The notes under the pieces were generated by a model. It made no database searches. It saw only the letters and a list, made by a program, of their open reading frames with translations, and was not told the DNA's origin. A stretch of DNA of 8,865 bases from the IMG/VR virus record IMGVR_UViG_2740892214_000003; one strand, given 5' to 3'. Positions 162 through 8,865 of this stretch are shown one piece after another. The translations under genes were made by a program, and so were the position numbers. Within the stretch, counting starts at the first letter, position 1. Every line of letters begins with the position of its first letter. This DNA comes from a virus (taxonomy: Duplodnaviria > Heunggongvirae > Uroviricota > Caudoviricetes).

Positions 162-533
162 CTATATGTAACAATCAATTTCTAAAGATACCCCCAACAT
201 TGCCAGACAACCGTCAATAAACCCTTCAGCTTTCTGCAGTCTGATAACAACCTGATTAAGTGATATCCCCAGTTTTACCCCCAACGCCCGTAATGTAACC
301 CCATACACATAATACATTTCCAGTAATTCGTATTGATACGGTTCCTTTTTCTTAAGAACTGTCATCGCAGAGCTAATGATCAGGCCATCGTCATCGCTAC
401 ATTGCGGGCGGGATTTTACTTTCGAAGGAATTAATCCCTTAAAACCTGCAGCAACAGATGACCATTCCACATCCTCGTGATTATTTGCCACCCATGCCCC
501 CCAACGTTCAAGAACCATTTGAATATCACGCAT
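162..533 (-). CDS. Phage antitermination protein Q (QuuD-like late-gene antiterminator)
   Basis: ORF-track protein from the internal ATG at 533 (MRDIQMVLERWGAWVANNHEDVEWSSVAAGFKGLI...KSRPQC...) matches my memory of Q proteins of E. coli lambdoid prophages. The track start at 548 is a TTG; the ATG at 531-533 has a GGAG 9 nt upstream on the minus strand. Stop TAG at 162-164. It is the last gene of the early-right train, as expected for Q. Confidence 0.8.
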   Translation of the reverse strand: MRDIQMVLERWGAWVANNHEDVEWSSVAAGFKGLIPSKVKSRPQCSDDDGLIISSAMTVLKKKEPYQYELLEMYYVYGVTLRALGVKLGISLNQVVIRLQKAEGFIDGCLAMLGVSLEIDCYI

Positions 534-550
534 CAACTTTCTCCACAAAA

Positions 551-1547: not shown

Positions 1548-2378
1548 TCAATGAACGGTATCGAGCAGCTTTAACAGCTCAGGGAACCGGGATTCGAAGA
1601 AATGCGGCTGCGTCTCGCGCGGATTTGCGGGACTGGTGATGTTCTTGCCGAACATGCAGCCTTTCGCTGTCAGCGACCAGAATTTTTTGATGTTGTTAAT
1701 CGCAGTGCGGCTGTATCGTTCACGTTGTTCAACGATCCCCAGCTTCGCCATCTGGTGATATGCCTGATTAGCTGTCAGGCGGATACCATACTGCTTCAGC
1801 AGTGCACTCAGTGACAGCGTGGGGCGGCTTGAGCCATCAGGCGCGTCAGCAGGAGCATCAATGGCATAGCGCGGTGCCAGATTCGGTAAGCCAACAGCCT
1901 CCTGGAGTTTCTGACAGGCACCAAGCACTGAAGAGTTAGACAGGTTTAATTCCCGGCGCATAAAGTCCAGCAGAATCACACCAGCCTGCATCTTGTCAGC
2001 AGCCTGTCCGGATAATTTTTCCGGTGCGCTGGTTACCATGTCGAAAGTACGGATCACCTTCAGATGGAATGACGGGCTNNNNNNNNNNNNNNNNNNNNNN
2101 NNNNNNNNNNNNNNNNNNNNNNNNNNNNNNNNNNNNNNNNNNNNNNNNNNNNNNNNNNNNNNNNNNNNNNNNNNNNNNNNNNNNNNNNNNNNNNNNNNNN
2201 NNNNNNNNNNNNNNNNNNNNNNNNNNNNNNNNNNNNNNNNNNNNNNNNNNNNNNNNNNNNNNNNNNNNNNNNNNNNNNNNNNNNNNGCTACTGCTGCGCG
2301 ATGCAGATCGTTCAGGCTGTAACGCCCATAAGCATCACGACGAACTTCAATACCATCAATGACCATCAGATTATTCAT
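1548..2378 (-). CDS. KilA-N domain protein (prophage antirepressor-like); central part masked by N
   Basis: N-terminus MNNLMVIDGIEVRRDAYGRYSLNDLHRAA is the characteristic start of KilA-N domain proteins. ATG at 2376-2378 with an AGGAG about 9 nt upstream on the minus strand. The reading frame stays continuous across the N run (2079-2286). The C-terminal 170 aa is an unrecognised domain. Confidence 0.7.
   Translation of the reverse strand: MNNLMVIDGIEVRRDAYGRYSLNDLHRAAVXXXXXXXXXXXXXXXXXXXXXXXXXXXXXXXXXXXXXXXXXXXXXXXXXXXXXXXXXXXXXXXXXXXXXXSPSFHLKVIRTFDMVTSAPEKLSGQAADKMQAGVILLDFMRRELNLSNSSVLGACQKLQEAVGLPNLAPRYAIDAPADAPDGSSRPTLSLSALLKQYGIRLTANQAYHQMAKLGIVEQRERYSRTAINNIKKFWSLTAKGCMFGKNITSPANPRETQPHFFESRFPELLKLLDTVH
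2079..2286. other. Run of 208 N (masked or unresolved sequence) inside the KilA-N CDS
   Basis: Literal n characters in the sequence; the flanking codons remain in frame. Confidence 1.
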
Positions 2379-5243: not shown

Positions 5244-5464
5244 GCCGCACCTCCGAGATGCTTCATGTTTTTTCCGGAGCGAAAGGCTATAAGCGGCATA
5301 CTGACGCGGTAATTACGACCCAGCGGTTCACAAATCACCTTCTGACATTCACGGTCCACCAGGCTAACACGTAGAACATGCCCTGCAGGCGTGGTGTACC
5401 ACTGACCGGGGCGAGGACAACGGAAAGTCTGATTGGTAAATCGTTTGAAAATATTCCGGATCAT
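5240..5464 (-). CDS. Hypothetical small basic protein (74 aa)
   Basis: ATG at 5462-5464 overlaps the Rha-ORF stop and its own stop overlaps the O-like ATG (ATGA both sides), which argues that it is translated. No family recognised. Confidence 0.5.
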   Translation of the reverse strand: MIRNIFKRFTNQTFRCPRPGQWYTTPAGHVLRVSLVDRECQKVICEPLGRNYRVSMPLIAFRSGKNMKHLGGAA

Positions 5465-6624
5465 TTGCGCCCCCTTACCTCTGAAGAGTTCAGCGACGAA
5501 TGAATAAGACGGGCAAGAAATGCCGCATCGTTAATTCGGTCATACAGACTTACAGCCAGAGGTGATTCAGCTTTTTCCAGCATGGGATAAAGCTGCTGCA
5601 ACCAGACCTGATGAATTGATGAAATGTAGGAATAGAGAACACTGGCGTTATGTGCAACGTCGCTCGGTACAGCGGGCTTTGAAAGCTGTTTCTCCATCTG
5701 GTTAAAGGCATTGATGTATGCCTCTTTGCACTGGGCAGCACGTTTACCCGTGAAACCCATAGCAAGAAACGCAAAGCCATCGCGGGTTATTTGATAGCAA
5801 GGTAGTTTGCGAGTACCGCCGTTGGGCTGGCGTACCAAAATTGATGTCTCCGCAAAATTGCGGGCACAAAACTCTGGAGAACAATCCAAAATGCGAATCT
5901 TTTTCAGAACATCGTCATGACGTTTAGAGAAGAAGTCAGCAACAGCCAAAGAAGATGTAACAGCCTGACCATCAACGATGGCAATTTCAGGTTGAGAGAG
6001 GGTTGGGAGAGTAGTCATAGTGACAGCCCCGGTAGTCAGTTTTTTAGAAAACTCACCACATGGGACGCCAATCACAGAGGTGGTGAGACGTACAGGGTTG
6101 GCGTTACCGGAGACTACCGAACCCGGCCCGACCGAAGTCGGCCCTGTACGCCCCACCATAATTTGGGCGTAGCAATGCTCATGACACGAAAAAACCGCAT
6201 GAGCGCGGTTATGCTCAGTAATCAATTTCAGGACGCCAATCCCGGCACCCGCTTTATAAGGTGCCTGAACAGTGTAACGTCCCGGAATGGCAGAATCAAT
6301 GTGCTGGTGGTCCTTCACACTCAACAAAATCACGCCTGAATTTCCACAAAGGACTAAAGCACTCATGCGGGTAGTCTTTGCGAAGATAGATAACGCGCTG
6401 TGTTTCTGGCTCCCAACGAATAACATGGACATAAAGCCCTCTTCCATCACGAAACCAGCGGTTAAGTTCCTGCACAACTCGCCCCCCACAGTCAGGTAAA
6501 GTTCTCTGTGGTTACTTACAGCCAGGTGATTTGGTAATCTGCATTCATGCCGTAACAACAGGTGTTCAGCGACACTGACCACCAGCTGTTGCGACAAACG
6601 GTTATTTGCCGTTAAACTGTTCAT
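5461..6624 (-). CDS. Rha-family phage regulatory protein carrying an unrecognised N-terminal extension of about 200 aa
   Basis: Residues about 215-311 (IAIVDGQAVTSSLAVADFFSKRHDDVLKKIRIL...RKLPCYQITRDGFAFLAMGFTGKRAAQCKEAYINAFNQME) match the pRha domain pattern. The same frame stays open for a further 606 nt upstream, to an ATG at 6622-6624 that overlaps the CII-like stop (ATGA). An alternative internal start is the ATG at 6016-6018 (MTTLPTL...). Confidence 0.6.
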   Translation of the reverse strand: MNSLTANNRLSQQLVVSVAEHLLLRHECRLPNHLAVSNHRELYLTVGGELCRNLTAGFVMEEGFMSMLFVGSQKHSALSIFAKTTRMSALVLCGNSGVILLSVKDHQHIDSAIPGRYTVQAPYKAGAGIGVLKLITEHNRAHAVFSCHEHCYAQIMVGRTGPTSVGPGSVVSGNANPVRLTTSVIGVPCGEFSKKLTTGAVTMTTLPTLSQPEIAIVDGQAVTSSLAVADFFSKRHDDVLKKIRILDCSPEFCARNFAETSILVRQPNGGTRKLPCYQITRDGFAFLAMGFTGKRAAQCKEAYINAFNQMEKQLSKPAVPSDVAHNASVLYSYISSIHQVWLQQLYPMLEKAESPLAVSLYDRINDAAFLARLIHSSLNSSEVRGRK

Positions 6625-7199
6625 GCGTTAGTTTCTCCACAGACACAAAACGCCACGACGCCCGGAGCTGCACACTCGCGGGCGTTACTCTTTTCCGGCG
6701 CACAAAAAACACGAAATAACAGTGTTAAATGCTCCTGCCACTTCGCCATTACTTGGTAGCTGTTCTCTTCGATTTGCTCACGCTCAGCCTGGTCAATAAC
6801 TCCATCAGCAGTTGCCTTGCGTAAGTACTGGGAATGCTTGCCAATCCATTCTATTGACTCCATCAGCCGCTGATTAATGTCACCATTGTCAATGTCATCA
6901 ATGACCACCAGCGGCACAAACACCCCATTACTACGACGGGCTATTGCATCTGTTATATGCCTGGTACCACTGGCATCCTGTAAAACCATGGCCCACTCAA
7001 GTGGAAAAATTTGATCCCCACCGCTACGCAGTCTGTTATGCAATTGATCTTTTGCTGGGGTGATATCATCAGATTTATACAAACCAAGAATTTCTGCTGC
7101 TTCCTCATAGCCATGAGGTAAATCAGCAATCGTTCTTCGTATTGCTGCCACCAGCCATGCTGGTTGTTTATCAACTTTCCATTCAGGTTCTTTACCCAC
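6621..7199 (-). CDS. CII-like regulatory protein (possibly CP76/YdaT family)
   Basis: 192-codon ORF immediately downstream of cro, the position of cII. Apparent GTG start at 7197-7199 with a GAGGA 7 nt upstream on the minus strand. The family assignment rests on position and a loose resemblance recalled from memory. Confidence 0.5.
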   Translation of the reverse strand: MGKEPEWKVDKQPAWLVAAIRRTIADLPHGYEEAAEILGLYKSDDITPAKDQLHNRLRSGGDQIFPLEWAMVLQDASGTRHITDAIARRSNGVFVPLVVIDDIDNGDINQRLMESIEWIGKHSQYLRKATADGVIDQAEREQIEENSYQVMAKWQEHLTLLFRVFCAPEKSNARECAAPGVVAFCVCGETNA

Positions 7200-7226
7200 G
7201 GTTAATTCCTCATTTCTGTGGTGTTT

Positions 7227-7424
7227 TTATGCCGCAGCACTGTTAGTCTTTTGATATAAAGACACGTCAACTTTCAGTTTTCCGTTAGTAATTTTTTCTA
7301 ACTGGTACGCTCGGCCTTCAGGAATAATCTCAGGCCACTCTGAAACAGACGGATGCTTAATACCTAGGGCTTCGGCGGTTTTACAAACTCCGCCGAAATA
7401 ATTAATCACGTCGGATTTCCGCAT
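7227..7424 (-). CDS. cro: Cro-type repressor (P22 Cro-like)
   Basis: MRKSDVINYFGGVCKTAEALGIKHPSVSEWPEIIPEGRAYQLEKITNGKLK parallels P22 Cro (MYKKDVIDHFGTQRAVAKALGISDAAVSQWKEVIPEKDAYRLEIVTAGALK). ATG at 7422-7424 with GGGAGA upstream; divergent from the repressor gene. Confidence 0.85.
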   Translation of the reverse strand: MRKSDVINYFGGVCKTAEALGIKHPSVSEWPEIIPEGRAYQLEKITNGKLKVDVSLYQKTNSAAA

Positions 7425-7456
7425 TTCTGTCTCCCGTTAAATTACGTTAAGCAGAA

Positions 7457-7474
7457 ATGTAGGATATCCAACAT
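7457..7474. promoter_or_regulatory. Operator (18-bp palindrome ATGTAGGATATCCAACAT) in the cro-proximal position
   Basis: Near-perfect inverted repeat; it is the exact reverse complement of the site at 8271-8288. Confidence 0.75.
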
Positions 7475-7485
7475 GCCAATGTCAA
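7457..7485 (-). promoter_or_regulatory. PR-like promoter for cro: TTGACA, 17-bp spacer, CTACAT (read on the minus strand)
   Basis: Minus-strand TTGACA (plus 7480-7485) and CTACAT (plus 7457-7462) with a 17-bp spacer. The same 35-bp module recurs at 8260-8289. Confidence 0.6.
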
Positions 7486-7496
7486 GAATCCTACAT
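7479..7496. promoter_or_regulatory. Degenerate operator (ATGTCAAGAATCCTACAT) with one good half-site
   Basis: The right half ATCCTACAT is a perfect half-site and the left half is poor. It lies inside the 9-bp inverted repeat TGCCAATGT...ACATTGGCA (7475-7500). Confidence 0.45.
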
Positions 7497-7503
7497 TGGC
7501 ATG

Positions 7504-7521
7504 TGGTAGGATTGCCTACAT
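7504..7521. promoter_or_regulatory. Degenerate operator (TGGTAGGATTGCCTACAT) overlapping the repressor start codon
   Basis: Matches 7 of 9 and 8 of 9 positions of the operator half-sites; sits in the position of an OR3-like site. Confidence 0.45.
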
Positions 7522-8173
7522 GATGAACATGAGTGATCGTATTCGCCAAAGGCGAAAAGAACTGAACCTGACACAACAAGCACTGGCTGATTTGACTGGT
7601 GTGAACCGTGTCACGGTTACTGGATGGGAAAAGGACGACTACCAACCAAATGGAGCCAACCTTCAAGCCCTAGCCAACGCACTTAAATGCGATCCTCTGT
7701 GGCTTGTTAGCGGAAAAGGCTCGCCTGAACCAAAGATAAATCTAAAACCTGAAATATTCGCAGTTAAAAAAGTCCCCCTCATCTCGTGGGTTCAGGCGGG
7801 TTCATGGACAATGACGGAGCCTGGTGTCAGGAAAGAAGATGCTGAAGAGTGGGTTTATACTACCGCCCTTGTATCAGAAATGGCATTTGCACTACGGGTC
7901 CGTGGTGATTCAATGACCAATCCCCTCGGCTCACCATCGATACCAGAAGGTTCTATCGTTATCGTAGAGCCAGATATTATTGATACAGAGTGTATTAACG
8001 GAAAAATCGTTGTTGCCCATATCAATGGTGGGCAAGAAGCGACACTCAAAAAATTTGTTGAGGACTGGCCGAACAGGTATCTCGTCCCACTAAATCCTAA
8101 CTATAAAACTATTGAATGCGGTGAGAACTGCAGAATAGTTGGTCTTGTCAAACAAGTAATAATGGATTTTTGA
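7520..8173 (+). CDS. cI: CI-type phage repressor: N-terminal HTH plus C-terminal S24 (LexA-like) autopeptidase
   Basis: The HTH region (LTQQALADLTGVNRVTVTGWEKD), an Ala-Gly site (VQAGSW), the catalytic Ser in GDSM and Lys in TLKKF are all present. The track start at 7496 is a TTG; the first ATG at 7520 sits under a degenerate operator and has a weak AGGA 8 nt upstream. Confidence 0.85.
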   Translation: MMNMSDRIRQRRKELNLTQQALADLTGVNRVTVTGWEKDDYQPNGANLQALANALKCDPLWLVSGKGSPEPKINLKPEIFAVKKVPLISWVQAGSWTMTEPGVRKEDAEEWVYTTALVSEMAFALRVRGDSMTNPLGSPSIPEGSIVIVEPDIIDTECINGKIVVAHINGGQEATLKKFVEDWPNRYLVPLNPNYKTIECGENCRIVGLVKQVIMDF

Positions 8174-8193
8174 CACATCTTCCTCACTATCGC

Positions 8194-8220
8194 AAAACCG
8201 GGGTATCCCCGGTTTTTTTA
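8194..8220 (+). terminator. Rho-independent terminator after the repressor gene
   Basis: aaaaCCGGGG-tatc-CCCCGGttttttt: GC stem, 4-nt loop and a run of 7 T, 21 nt after the repressor stop. An A-tract upstream means it could act in both directions. Confidence 0.8.
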
Positions 8221-8235
8221 TGAGCCTATCTTTTT

Positions 8236-8253
8236 ATGTAGGATAACCAACAT
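8236..8253. promoter_or_regulatory. Operator (ATGTAGGATAACCAACAT), OL-like distal site
   Basis: 18-bp near-palindrome matching the operator consensus ATGTWGGATATCCWACAT. Confidence 0.7.
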
Positions 8254-8259
8254 AAACTC

Positions 8260-8289
8260 TTGACACTTACATGTTGGATATCCTACATT
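8260..8289 (+). promoter_or_regulatory. PL-like promoter (TTGACA, 17-bp spacer, CTACAT/TACATT) for the operon to the right of the repressor
   Basis: Consensus -35 at 8260-8265 and a -10-like hexamer at 8283-8289, with an operator embedded; near-identical to the cro promoter module. Confidence 0.6.
8271..8288. promoter_or_regulatory. Operator (ATGTTGGATATCCTACAT) overlapping the spacer and -10 of the rightward promoter
   Basis: Perfect 18-bp palindrome of the same family. Confidence 0.75.
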
Positions 8290-8448
8290 TGTTTTTAGAG
8301 TTGTGGTGAATGCGCAGGCTGATGCGCGAAAGACATTGCAGCTATTGCGGAAAAGAGCTGTTCGGCGGGGCAATTAAACGCCCGTGAGAGTCTGAAATAA
8401 CCGCAAGCCGGAGATCAGCACCGGTCACCACAACAGCCACTGCTTTGG

Positions 8449-8495
8449 CGGTACCAGTTTGTACACTTGCTTCCGGCTGGTACCGCTCTTTTTAC
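8449..8495 (+). terminator. Terminator-like hairpin in the PL leader (10-bp GC-rich stem, 19-nt loop, TCTTTTT tail)
   Basis: GCGGTACCAG (8449-8458) pairs perfectly with CTGGTACCGC (8478-8487) and is followed by tcttttt. The large loop makes the function uncertain; it could be a terminator, an attenuator or a structured RNA element. Confidence 0.45.
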
Positions 8496-8630
8496 AAAAC
8501 AGAGAAGAGCATCACCGGACGACGGGCTCATAACCCAATCCATCCGGGCGGCTGCCACCGCAGGTGTTCTTCTCTGTTTTGTGGAGAAACCAACCGACCT
8601 TGCAGGGTCGATATGATGAGGAGCAGCAAA

Positions 8631-8865
8631 ATGGCTAGCGAACGCAGTACTGATGTGCAGGCATTTATCGGGGAGTTGGACGGCGGCGTATTTGAAACCA
8701 AAATCGGCGCAGTTCTCAGTGAAGTCGCTTCAGGTGTGATGAACACGAAAACCAAAGGTAAGGTCTCACTCAACCTGGAAATCGAACCATTTGATGAGAA
8801 CCGTGTGAAAATCAAACACAAACTCTCATATGTTCGCCCGACTAACCGCGGGAAAATTTCTGAAG
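8631..8865 (+). CDS. Hypothetical protein, 5' part only (runs off the window end)
   Basis: ATG at 8631 preceded by GAGGAG 7 nt upstream. The frame is open to the window end (MASERSTDVQAFIGELDGGVFETKIGAVLSEVASGVMNTKTKGKVSLNLEIEPFDENRVKIKHKLSYVRPTNRGKISE...). It is not arginine-rich, so not an N-like antiterminator. Confidence 0.55.
   Translation, partial: MASERSTDVQAFIGELDGGVFETKIGAVLSEVASGVMNTKTKGKVSLNLEIEPFDENRVKIKHKLSYVRPTNRGKISE

Follow-up and report, generated by a model that had tools for sequence, protein, structure and literature searches.

A DicF-related hairpin and a tRNA-like three-way junction in the early-left leader of a lambdoid prophage without a visible N gene

What occupies the long untranslated leader of an early-left operon when no N gene is in sight? 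The question is raised by a stretch of 8,865 nucleotides of the virus record IMGVR_UViG_2740892214_000003 (the window, meaning here the whole stretch that was analysed), in which about 335 nt, untranslated, separate the transcription start inferred for a PL-like promoter, around 8296, from the ATG of the first open reading frame (ORF), yfdP, at 8631. An initial annotation, made from the letters alone, had described this leader as long and structured, and had proposed for it a terminator or attenuator cascade of two hairpins, an antitermination RNA like the put sites of phage HK022, or a small RNA of about 200 nt made from the PL-like promoter. The leader is indeed long and structured: it folds at -140.9 kcal/mol (z = -5.7), and 0 of 100 shuffles were as good. 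As to what it does, we arrived, with about even confidence, at a reading of the PL leader as a cassette of conserved, non-coding RNA modules in which the hairpin T1 would terminate part of the transcripts and RNase III would process those that read through. The features that matter most for this reading are the following:

8447-8493, plus strand: T1, a DicF-related hairpin followed by UCUUUUU, with a perfect stem of 10-13 bp (-21.2 kcal/mol); predicted intrinsic terminator
8494-8582, plus strand: three-way junction, from the fold and from covariation
8494-8513/8563-8582, extendable to 8489/8587, plus strand: P1, the closing stem of the junction, 20-29 bp
8515-8526/8534-8547, plus strand: P2, from the fold, with the apical GGG-CUCAUAA-CCC at 8524-8536
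8548-8551/8558-8561, plus strand: P3, from the fold, a variable hairpin

The first of the two hairpins was much as the initial annotation had seen it. Its 10-bp stem is perfect, GCGGTACCAG at 8448-8457 pairing with CTGGTACCGC at 8477-8486 (the earlier 8449-8487 was off by one), and it is G+C-rich and runs directly into a U-run (TCTTTTT, 8487-8493), as in an intrinsic terminator; a simple terminator scan missed it, the loop being longer than 8 nt. We then looked at the loci in which the junction stands in the early-left leader of a prophage (class A), found in E. coli, Citrobacter, Enterobacter, Kosakonia, Mixta and Buttiauxella. A hairpin with at least five U lies directly 5' of the three-way junction in 114 of 117 such loci, and the stems that occupy this position have at least 10 different sequences, including GGCGGUACCAG, GCGGCAUC, GCGGCGCCAG, GCGGCGUC, CUGGCGG, UGCCCAUC and GGGGCGGUAACA. 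T1 looks like a real intrinsic terminator or attenuator, and an RNA of about 198 nt started at PL is predicted to end there.

An annotated 'dicF-like region' in the record of the phage P1 ban operon prompted a comparison of T1 with DicF. The local alignment of T1 with K-12 DicF scored 41 (shuffles: mean 16.4, sd 3.3, maximum 32; z = 7.4), and other class-A variants, in which the DicF-like 5' part is retained, reached z = 9.6. The sequence common to T1 and DicF reads UUUGGCGGUAYCAGUUU...CCGCYCUUUUU. By this sequence likeness T1 is DicF-related without being a member of the Rfam DicF family, and the conservation of T1 together with its resemblance to DicF supports the small RNA of about 200 nt as a predicted product of PL. 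The same three observations, conservation in 114 of the 117 loci, varied stems and similarity to DicF, uphold the first hairpin of the proposed cascade.

The second hairpin fared differently. The long-range pairing described for it is real, its first arm having been off by one (CAGAGAAGAG at 8500-8509 with TTCTTCTCTG at 8567-8576), and it is only the middle of P1. The TTTT that had made it look like a terminator is base-paired inside P1, the closing stem of the three-way junction, and the second hairpin was rejected as a terminator. A distant BLAST search with 8400-8640 unexpectedly matched Klebsiella phages beside annotated tRNAs, the 50 matching nt starting immediately past the final tRNA of an array, and a scan of viral contigs for the shared core GGGCTCATAAYCCAATCC gave at least 120 loci, with 73 distinct variants among the matches listed. 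One and the same fold, made of P1, P2 with the GGG-CUCAUAA-CCC top and a variable P3, was recovered in 33 diverse variants. When 32 distinct early-leader variants were aligned, 96.2% of the cells were paired, compared with 40-51% when the partners were slid; nine pairs had changed on both sides (53 cells), and 0 of 500 shuffles reached the observed score. P2 also covaries between the early-leader copies and those of the Klebsiella tRNA arrays, with GC, UA, AU and UG at one position, and P1 carries a recurrent internal mismatch at alignment columns 14/109. The analysis of folding and covariance across related loci, which had been suggested as a check, found both the first hairpin and the second stem conserved.

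Could these modules be a property of the DNA, such as recombination 'boundary sequences' or the ends of mobile tRNA cassettes, with no functional RNA involved? The homology with mEp460-type phages has a mosaic boundary at 8297 (BLAST), with other joints at 8426 and 8445-8448; a related stretch in phage CUS-3 overlaps the annotated 'boundary sequence' bsq4, and widely different phages carry the modules in differing orders, all of which would suit such an explanation. We consider it highly improbable. The alignment contains about 60 G-U cells, which would be A-C mismatches on the other strand or in a DNA repeat, and the covariance model (R1) scores 109 bits on the plus strand vs 40.6 on the minus strand; both therefore point to selection on an RNA read in the PL direction and not on a DNA repeat. 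Moreover, the stems covary while the loops are fixed, the orientation is always transcriptional, and a terminator or a tRNA precedes the element in every case.

Divergent forms of the junction were also seen. In L215 (2548-2626) P1 and P2 are present without P3, and the forms in L007 and L240 follow an apparent tRNA 3' end and have a P3 loop, AUUCCUAA, which some class-A variants have as well. The Klebsiella copies contain a hammerhead-like CUGAUGA, which was discounted as being the 5' arm of P2. A scan of genome contigs with a 16-mer yielded usable matches in Enterobacterales and in L215; 103 of the 120 matches listed were chance occurrences in unrelated phyla.

The likeness of the junction to a CAU tRNA (tRNA-fMet, tRNA-Ile2) rests on its core, its placement and its size. 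The 14 nt that it has in common with the anticodon arm of the E. coli initiator tRNA (metZ) include the three G-C pairs, typical of initiator tRNA, and the CUCAUAA loop, and GGG-CUCAUAA-CCC forms an anticodon arm with a 7-nt loop, U33, the anticodon and a purine at position 37. In class A, P1 has 20-29 bp and there is no tRNA within 600 nt. In a second set of loci (class B) the element is the last unit of a tRNA array in Klebsiella lambdoid phages, past Q and before the lysis genes. There it is tRNA-sized and lies about 6 nt past the end of the last tRNA, with the core always 22-24 nt past that end, and it has a short P1 (GGCCUG/CAGGCC) followed by A/G-CCA. This tRNA-like spacing and the N-CCA are what would be expected of a unit excised like a tRNA. 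The window copy lacks the NCCA, and its 'acceptor' stem has 20-29 bp; the element also departs from a tRNA in having an elongated anticodon arm and no cloverleaf, D arm or T-loop consensus. ARAGORN found 0 tRNA genes in the window, the Rfam tRNA model matched neither the window element nor a Klebsiella phage copy at E up to 10, and Rfam searches at relaxed cutoffs with the window, with T1 by itself and with the Klebsiella copy returned no DicF, tRNA or other relevant family.

These features raise a second possibility, unlikely in our estimate and compatible with the best explanation: that the junction is mainly a trans-acting mimic of the anticodon arm of initiator or Ile2 tRNA, its long stem and its placement in arrays serving excision only. 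The candidate partners, equally tentative, which the freed RNA would bind or decoy, would be those that recognise a CAU loop on a GGG/CCC stem: an anticodon nuclease such as enteric VapC, MetRS, TilS or the 30S P site. The 21-nt core GACGGGCUCAUAAYCCAAUCC does not vary, in contrast to P1, P2 and P3, which change and covary; distant copies in phage P1 keep GGG-(U/G)UCAUAU-CCC, i.e. U33, CAU and A37; the Klebsiella copies sit within tRNA arrays and keep N-CCA; and the element occurs in early and in late operons, which speaks for a function independent of the neighbouring gene. Weighing on the other side are the rejection by ARAGORN and by the Rfam tRNA model, the missing D arm and canonical T loop, and the absence of CCA from the window copy, and the element could be a tRNA relic retained only as a folding scaffold. 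Rfam 15 and the searchable literature contained no description of a tRNA-like junction of this kind, no link of one to tRNA arrays and no initiator-anticodon mimic in prophages. Going further, the junction might represent a widespread undescribed family of phage tRNA mimics, excised by RNase III or by tRNA-processing enzymes and acting in trans, a proposal that we regard as rather unlikely; with the same reserve, such a family could, while the phage develops, serve as a decoy for those VapC-type toxins that cleave initiator tRNA, or interact with MetRS, TilS or the P site of the ribosome.

Rfam tRNA matches of about 126 nt in L089 (1800-1925) and L106 (1077-1203) suggest an insertion or intron, and one of the two stands in a class-A locus, some 350 nt 5' of the element.

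The preferred reading, termination at T1 plus processing by RNase III, takes its model from the dicBF operon of the Qin prophage. As in the window, a repressor-controlled early promoter by the immunity genes is followed by a hairpin with a U-run, flanking long stems and then a small gene, and DicF ends at its own Rho-independent terminator, in a place of the early operon equivalent to that of T1. A weak homologue of the long-stem element is found in Qin (L252, 2170-2262), where its fold is a stem of about 24 bp. Directly behind the DicF terminator begins another long-range stem, of about 20 bp, whose end lies 15 nt short of dicB; the order of DicF terminator, stem and dicB is the layout of T1, P1 and yfdP. 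The window differs from Qin in the order of its modules, in its intact tRNA-like core, which is degenerate in Qin, and in the failure of T1 to match the Rfam DicF model. The type of cassette, a prophage early-operon small RNA with RNase III processing, is already known from dicBF.

A preprint (bioRxiv 10.1101/2023.04.14.536235, which cites Faubladier et al. 1990) attributes to RNase III the 5' end of a DicF precursor 190 nt long. Measured upstream from the 3' end of DicF by that length, the cut falls at about 2246 in L252, within the 3' arm of the Qin stem. Two RNase III target surveys mention DicF by citation only. The P1 stem of the window is a near-continuous duplex of 20-29 bp, a size fitting an RNase III substrate, cleavage being known, from the literature, for the weak Qin homologue only. 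RNase III processing hairpins are also found in other phage early leaders, those of the lambda N leader and the T7 early RNAs. The window resembles them in placing a long near-perfect duplex between the early promoter and the first ORF, and differs in that the duplex encloses a conserved branched RNA instead of a simple loop. The long stems are likely targets of RNase III.

The ban operon of phage P1 offers a second parallel. Its C1-repressed promoter is followed by the dicF-like region, tRNA-Asn, tRNA-Thr, copies of the element, tRNA-Ile2(CAU) and ban. At least two copies of the long-stem CAU element are good ones, with 38 and 31.6 bits and the cores GGGUUCAUAUCCC and GGGGUCAUAUCCC. The phage P1 leader thus has, like the window, a repressed promoter, a dicF-like region and a long-stem CAU element, and also a GUGAAUGC...hairpin; unlike the window, it has several tandem copies interleaved with real tRNAs, and the core reads GGG(U/G)UCAUAUCCC.

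In the phage P1 record (L251, AF234172) the ORFs plp and upl are placed at 1669-2238, opposite to the ban operon and exactly over the CAU-element copies and the GUGAAUGC hairpin, and the annotated mEp460_036 corresponds to 8415-8558 of the window (minus strand), over the leader RNAs. All three annotations are probably spurious.

In the proposed course of events, derepression would start transcription from PL, and the 5' domain of the leader, D1 (8300-8434), would be made first. T1 would then stop part of the transcripts, which would give a stable DicF-related RNA of about 200 nt and attenuate the early-left operon. RNA that reads through would carry the junction, and RNase III may cut its P1 duplex. 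Such a cut would free a tRNA-sized RNA with a copy of the initiator-tRNA anticodon arm and detach the upstream small-RNA part, and the yfdP mRNA would be left with a defined 5' end consisting of the GGAGAAAC linker, the P4 hairpin and the Shine-Dalgarno sequence. The structures, their conservation and covariation, the homologues and their contexts were observed; termination, cleavage by RNase III and any activity in trans are what we infer from them.

Several results weigh against this proposal. The Rfam DicF model (RF00039), which is built from near-identical copies, had no match at E up to 10 in 8395-8505 or in 7000-8865, and none of 13 class-A loci, nor phage P1, reached its gathering score, K-12 DicF itself scoring 76.7 bits. 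The 5' seed of DicF is replaced by other sequence in the subtype to which the window belongs, so that DicF-like targeting is unproven, and in RNAduplex comparisons of T1 with the ftsZ leader authentic DicF was itself not separated from shuffles. With 17 bits (E = 0.003) the Qin homologue of the P1 stem is a weak one, and the mapping of the Qin cut by the '190 nt' is approximate. No antiterminator is evident that would let RNA polymerase pass T1. Finally, a role in processing alone does not explain why a 21-nt anticodon-arm core is invariant across genera.

If the proposal is correct, the seemingly 'empty' leaders of common E. coli, Shigella, Salmonella and Stx-converting prophages would hold a diverged DicF-type small RNA and an unrecognised structured RNA, and the DicF family would extend well past the near-identical copies that are catalogued; the literature on 'DicF-like' RNAs yielded nothing relevant, and no description of the extent of DicF-related hairpins was found in Rfam 15 or the searchable literature. 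The dicBF leader, the phage P1 ban leader and phage tRNA arrays would become one set of shuffled RNA modules, and the junction would provide a definite candidate, open to testing, for a mimic of the initiator-tRNA anticodon arm made by a phage.

What allows transcription to go on beyond this leader in a phage without N? The absence of an N gene, noted at the outset, holds: Pfam found no N protein in the window, and none is listed in the annotated left operons of mEp460 and Lys8385Vzw. The put-like proposal, a cis-acting RNA that modifies RNA polymerase so that it passes downstream early-left terminators, would answer the question, and an early-leader RNA that is highly structured and has invariant loop nucleotides is in keeping with it, as is an intrinsic terminator about 85 nt after the element in the Klebsiella phages. 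Like HK022 put, the window element is a structured RNA in the early leader of an N-less lambdoid phage. We located putL and putR in HK022 by the published A3GACG7/C15-U19 pairing; in local alignments with 8296-8630 putL scored 24 (shuffle mean 22) and putR 22 (shuffle mean 21), which is no similarity above chance. The put sites, whose factor-independent antitermination depends on the zinc-binding domain of the RNA polymerase beta' subunit, are two adjacent stem-loops of about 70 nt, one site per early operon shortly after PL and PR, whereas the window element is a single-copy three-way junction; its model R1 had no match in the HK022 early region, and in the window it recognised, besides the element, its reverse-strand echo and nothing in the PR operon. 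The element also lies after T1 and not before it, and its place within tRNA arrays, where CCA follows it, points to an RNA that is cut out and does not stay bound to the polymerase. On these grounds the put-like proposal was abandoned as quite improbable.

A 44-nt stretch inside the CII/CP76 gene (6917-6874, minus strand), GTGCCGCTGGTGGTCATTGATGACATTGACAATGGTGACATTAA, preceded by a small hairpin, resembles stem II of HK022 putR. Its score of 41 is borderline (shuffle maximum 35; maximum 40 in 6328 chunks of unrelated natural phage sequence), and the likeness could be due to chance within coding sequence, outside the leader.

A different answer would be a protein-dependent site, to which the sequence between the junction and yfdP lends itself. 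It contains these features, the first of them repeated in the PR-side transcript:

8580-8594, plus strand: linker UGUGGAGAAACCAAC, directly after P1
8595-8610, plus strand: P4 hairpin, CGACCU-UGCA-GGGUCG, from the fold
8618-8865, plus strand: Shine-Dalgarno sequence GAGGAG (8618-8623) and the start of yfdP (ATG 8631), which runs off the window
6627-6641, minus strand: second copy of the linker, UGUGGAGAAACUAAC, in the PR-side transcript; inverted repeat I11

The linker is kept as GGAGAAAC(Y)(A/U)AC in most class-A variants, and a P4 loop of UGCA or GGCA is found at the same position in nearly all of them on unrelated stems (GCCCC/GGGGC, GGCGGU/GCCGCC, AGCGCC/GGCGCU, UCCU/AGGA). In the proposal, GGAGAAACYAAC in the linker and P4 would act as a nut-like site that loads a phage antiterminator or a translational regulator. 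The 12-mer GGAGAAACYAAC occurs exactly twice in the window, in the linker and at 6627-6638 (minus strand), hence once per early transcript, with about 0.002 extra exact copies expected by chance (an estimate from the window size), and a conserved YGCA loop on variable stems is the usual signature of a protein-binding hairpin. We nevertheless hold a nut-like site to be improbable. There is no N-like protein by Pfam, and the PR-side copy overlaps both the CII-like gene's stop codon and the Ash/Rha ribosome-binding site; most E. coli relatives have this copy too, on the opposite strand and 1.9-2.9 kb away from the element, and it is known from close relatives only. When tested as a boxB-type arrangement, the PR side proved to have the linker 12-mer without a P4-type hairpin after it. 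Nor did the boxA of the initial annotation survive comparison: the string CGCTCTTTTTA is present, as the 3' arm of T1 with the U-run, and in related loci the same position reads CGTCCTTTTT, CGCCCTTTTT, CGCATTTTTTT, CCAGCCTTTTT or GGCACCTTTTTT (CGTCC-, CGCCC-, CGCAT-, CCAGCC-, GGCACC-TTTTT). Since CGCTCTTTTTA is part of T1 and not conserved, a lambda-type nut boxA (CGCUCUUA / GCUCUUUAACAA) was rejected.

The 15-mer UGUGGAGAAACYAAC, present in both early transcripts, resembles CGGAGAGAAACUAUG of the ftsZ leader, and several T1 loops in relatives carry the complement of the 15-mer, e.g. GUUUCUCUCC in L027. The yfdP product has 120 aa in the relatives and no Pfam family; the gene is annotated in RefSeq E. 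coli genomes and in K-12 CPS-53.

The leader might also work as an attenuator by alternative pairing, in which UUUUUACACAAC (the U-run and the 5' arm of P1) pairs either with an upstream GCUGUGUGUAG or with the 3' arm of P1. Many class-A folds do enclose T1 in a UGUGUAG/UUACACA helix, and GUUGUGGUG could pair with CACAAC or with CACCACAAC. The upstream GCUGUGUGUAG is absent in the window's subtype, no ligand or sensor is evident, and the options may merely reflect the common ancestry of repeated arms, and we give this mechanism a small probability.

Upstream of T1 the leader is made up of the following:

8300-8434, plus strand: domain D1 of the 5' leader, from the fold, closed by GUUGUGGUG (8300-8308) with CACCACAAC (8426-8434)
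8312-8316/8323-8327, plus strand: hairpin H2, in D1, from the fold
8310-8387, plus strand: 25-codon ORF MRRLMRERHCSYCGKELFGGAIKRP, from translation, which starts inside H2 and has no Pfam family
8407-8425, plus strand: hairpin H3, GCCGG-AGAUCAGCA-CCGGU, in D1, from the fold

Is this part coding? A 25-codon ORF with a CxxC motif and a poor ribosome-binding site had been pointed out here. It exists, at 8310-8387 instead of 8311-8388, and its GGUGA immediately adjoins the AUG, a poor spacing. In HK629, H2 has changed from GCGCA/UGCGC to GCACA/UGUGU, a compensatory change that keeps the pairing and puts H and C in place of two R in the peptide; the tails of the ORF are unrelated across four phages. 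Because the pairing is kept while the peptide changes, and because the tails are unrelated, this arginine-rich CxxC ORF is probably not a gene; judged by sequence comparison it is most likely an accident of hairpin H2, conserved as RNA. The stretch between H2 and H3 is variable, and the order of H2 and then H3 after a P1-type stem is common to phiEt88, HK629 and KP591P3; in KP591P3 and phiEt88 the series from H2 to H3 stands immediately 5' of tRNA genes. H3 was found in at least 111 places in viral contigs (in the window at 8407-8425; also L127 1501-1536, L128 1501-1528 and L126 1501-1531), and in Rfam it gave a marginal local match to rydB only (13.7 bits). Among the matches listed, GCCGG-AGAUCAGCA-CCGGY and a C/A-rich run are nearly invariant. 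The hosts of H3 are diverse, T1-like, P1-like, lambdoid and phages of about 157 kb, and it often precedes a ribosome-binding site or a tRNA.

The cassette lies in the immunity and early region of an SfV/mEp460/ST64B-like lambdoid prophage, to judge from these features:

7496-8173, plus strand: S24/HTH repressor (cI), Pfam
7227-7424, minus strand: Cro, P22-type, Pfam
6621-7199, minus strand: CII/CP76 protein, Pfam
5461-6624, minus strand: Ash+Rha protein, Pfam
162-548, minus strand: Q antiterminator, Pfam
8236-8253 and 8271-8288, no strand assigned: two operator-like 18-bp palindromes (repeat families D1, I1 and I6), the second overlapping the PL-like -10
8260-8289, plus strand: PL-like sigma-70 promoter TTGACA-18-TACATT, promoter scan, 10/12 matches

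The repressor gene closes with its own terminator, after which come the operator-like palindromes and the PL-like promoter, and an identical palindrome is found at the PR-like promoter (7457-7474). The PL-like promoter named by the initial annotation is thus in place, with operator-like palindromes flanking and overlapping it, and the layout is that of lambda cI-OL/PL, a repressor-controlled early-left promoter. BLAST with 8170-8865 found 99% identity to Stx2c-converting phages and phage Lys8385Vzw, and 99.5% identity to mEp460 over 82% of the query; the gene order is identical in the annotated Stx2c-converting phages, Lys8385Vzw and mEp460 relatives of the window. A run of N (masked or unknown bases) at about 2050-2300 breaks a KilA-N-like ORF (1548-2378, minus strand), whose translation shows a long stretch of X.

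The element itself is widespread in the species: megablast with 8396-8640 had matches in 2597 of the 5426 complete E. coli genomes, and in 1549 of these at least 80% of the query was covered. In K-12 CPS-53 it has been deleted, with only about 25 nt left upstream of yfdP. Upstream of that yfdP (L129, 5380-5520) there are direct repeats of GATTTTGACG(G/C)GTCA-like units.

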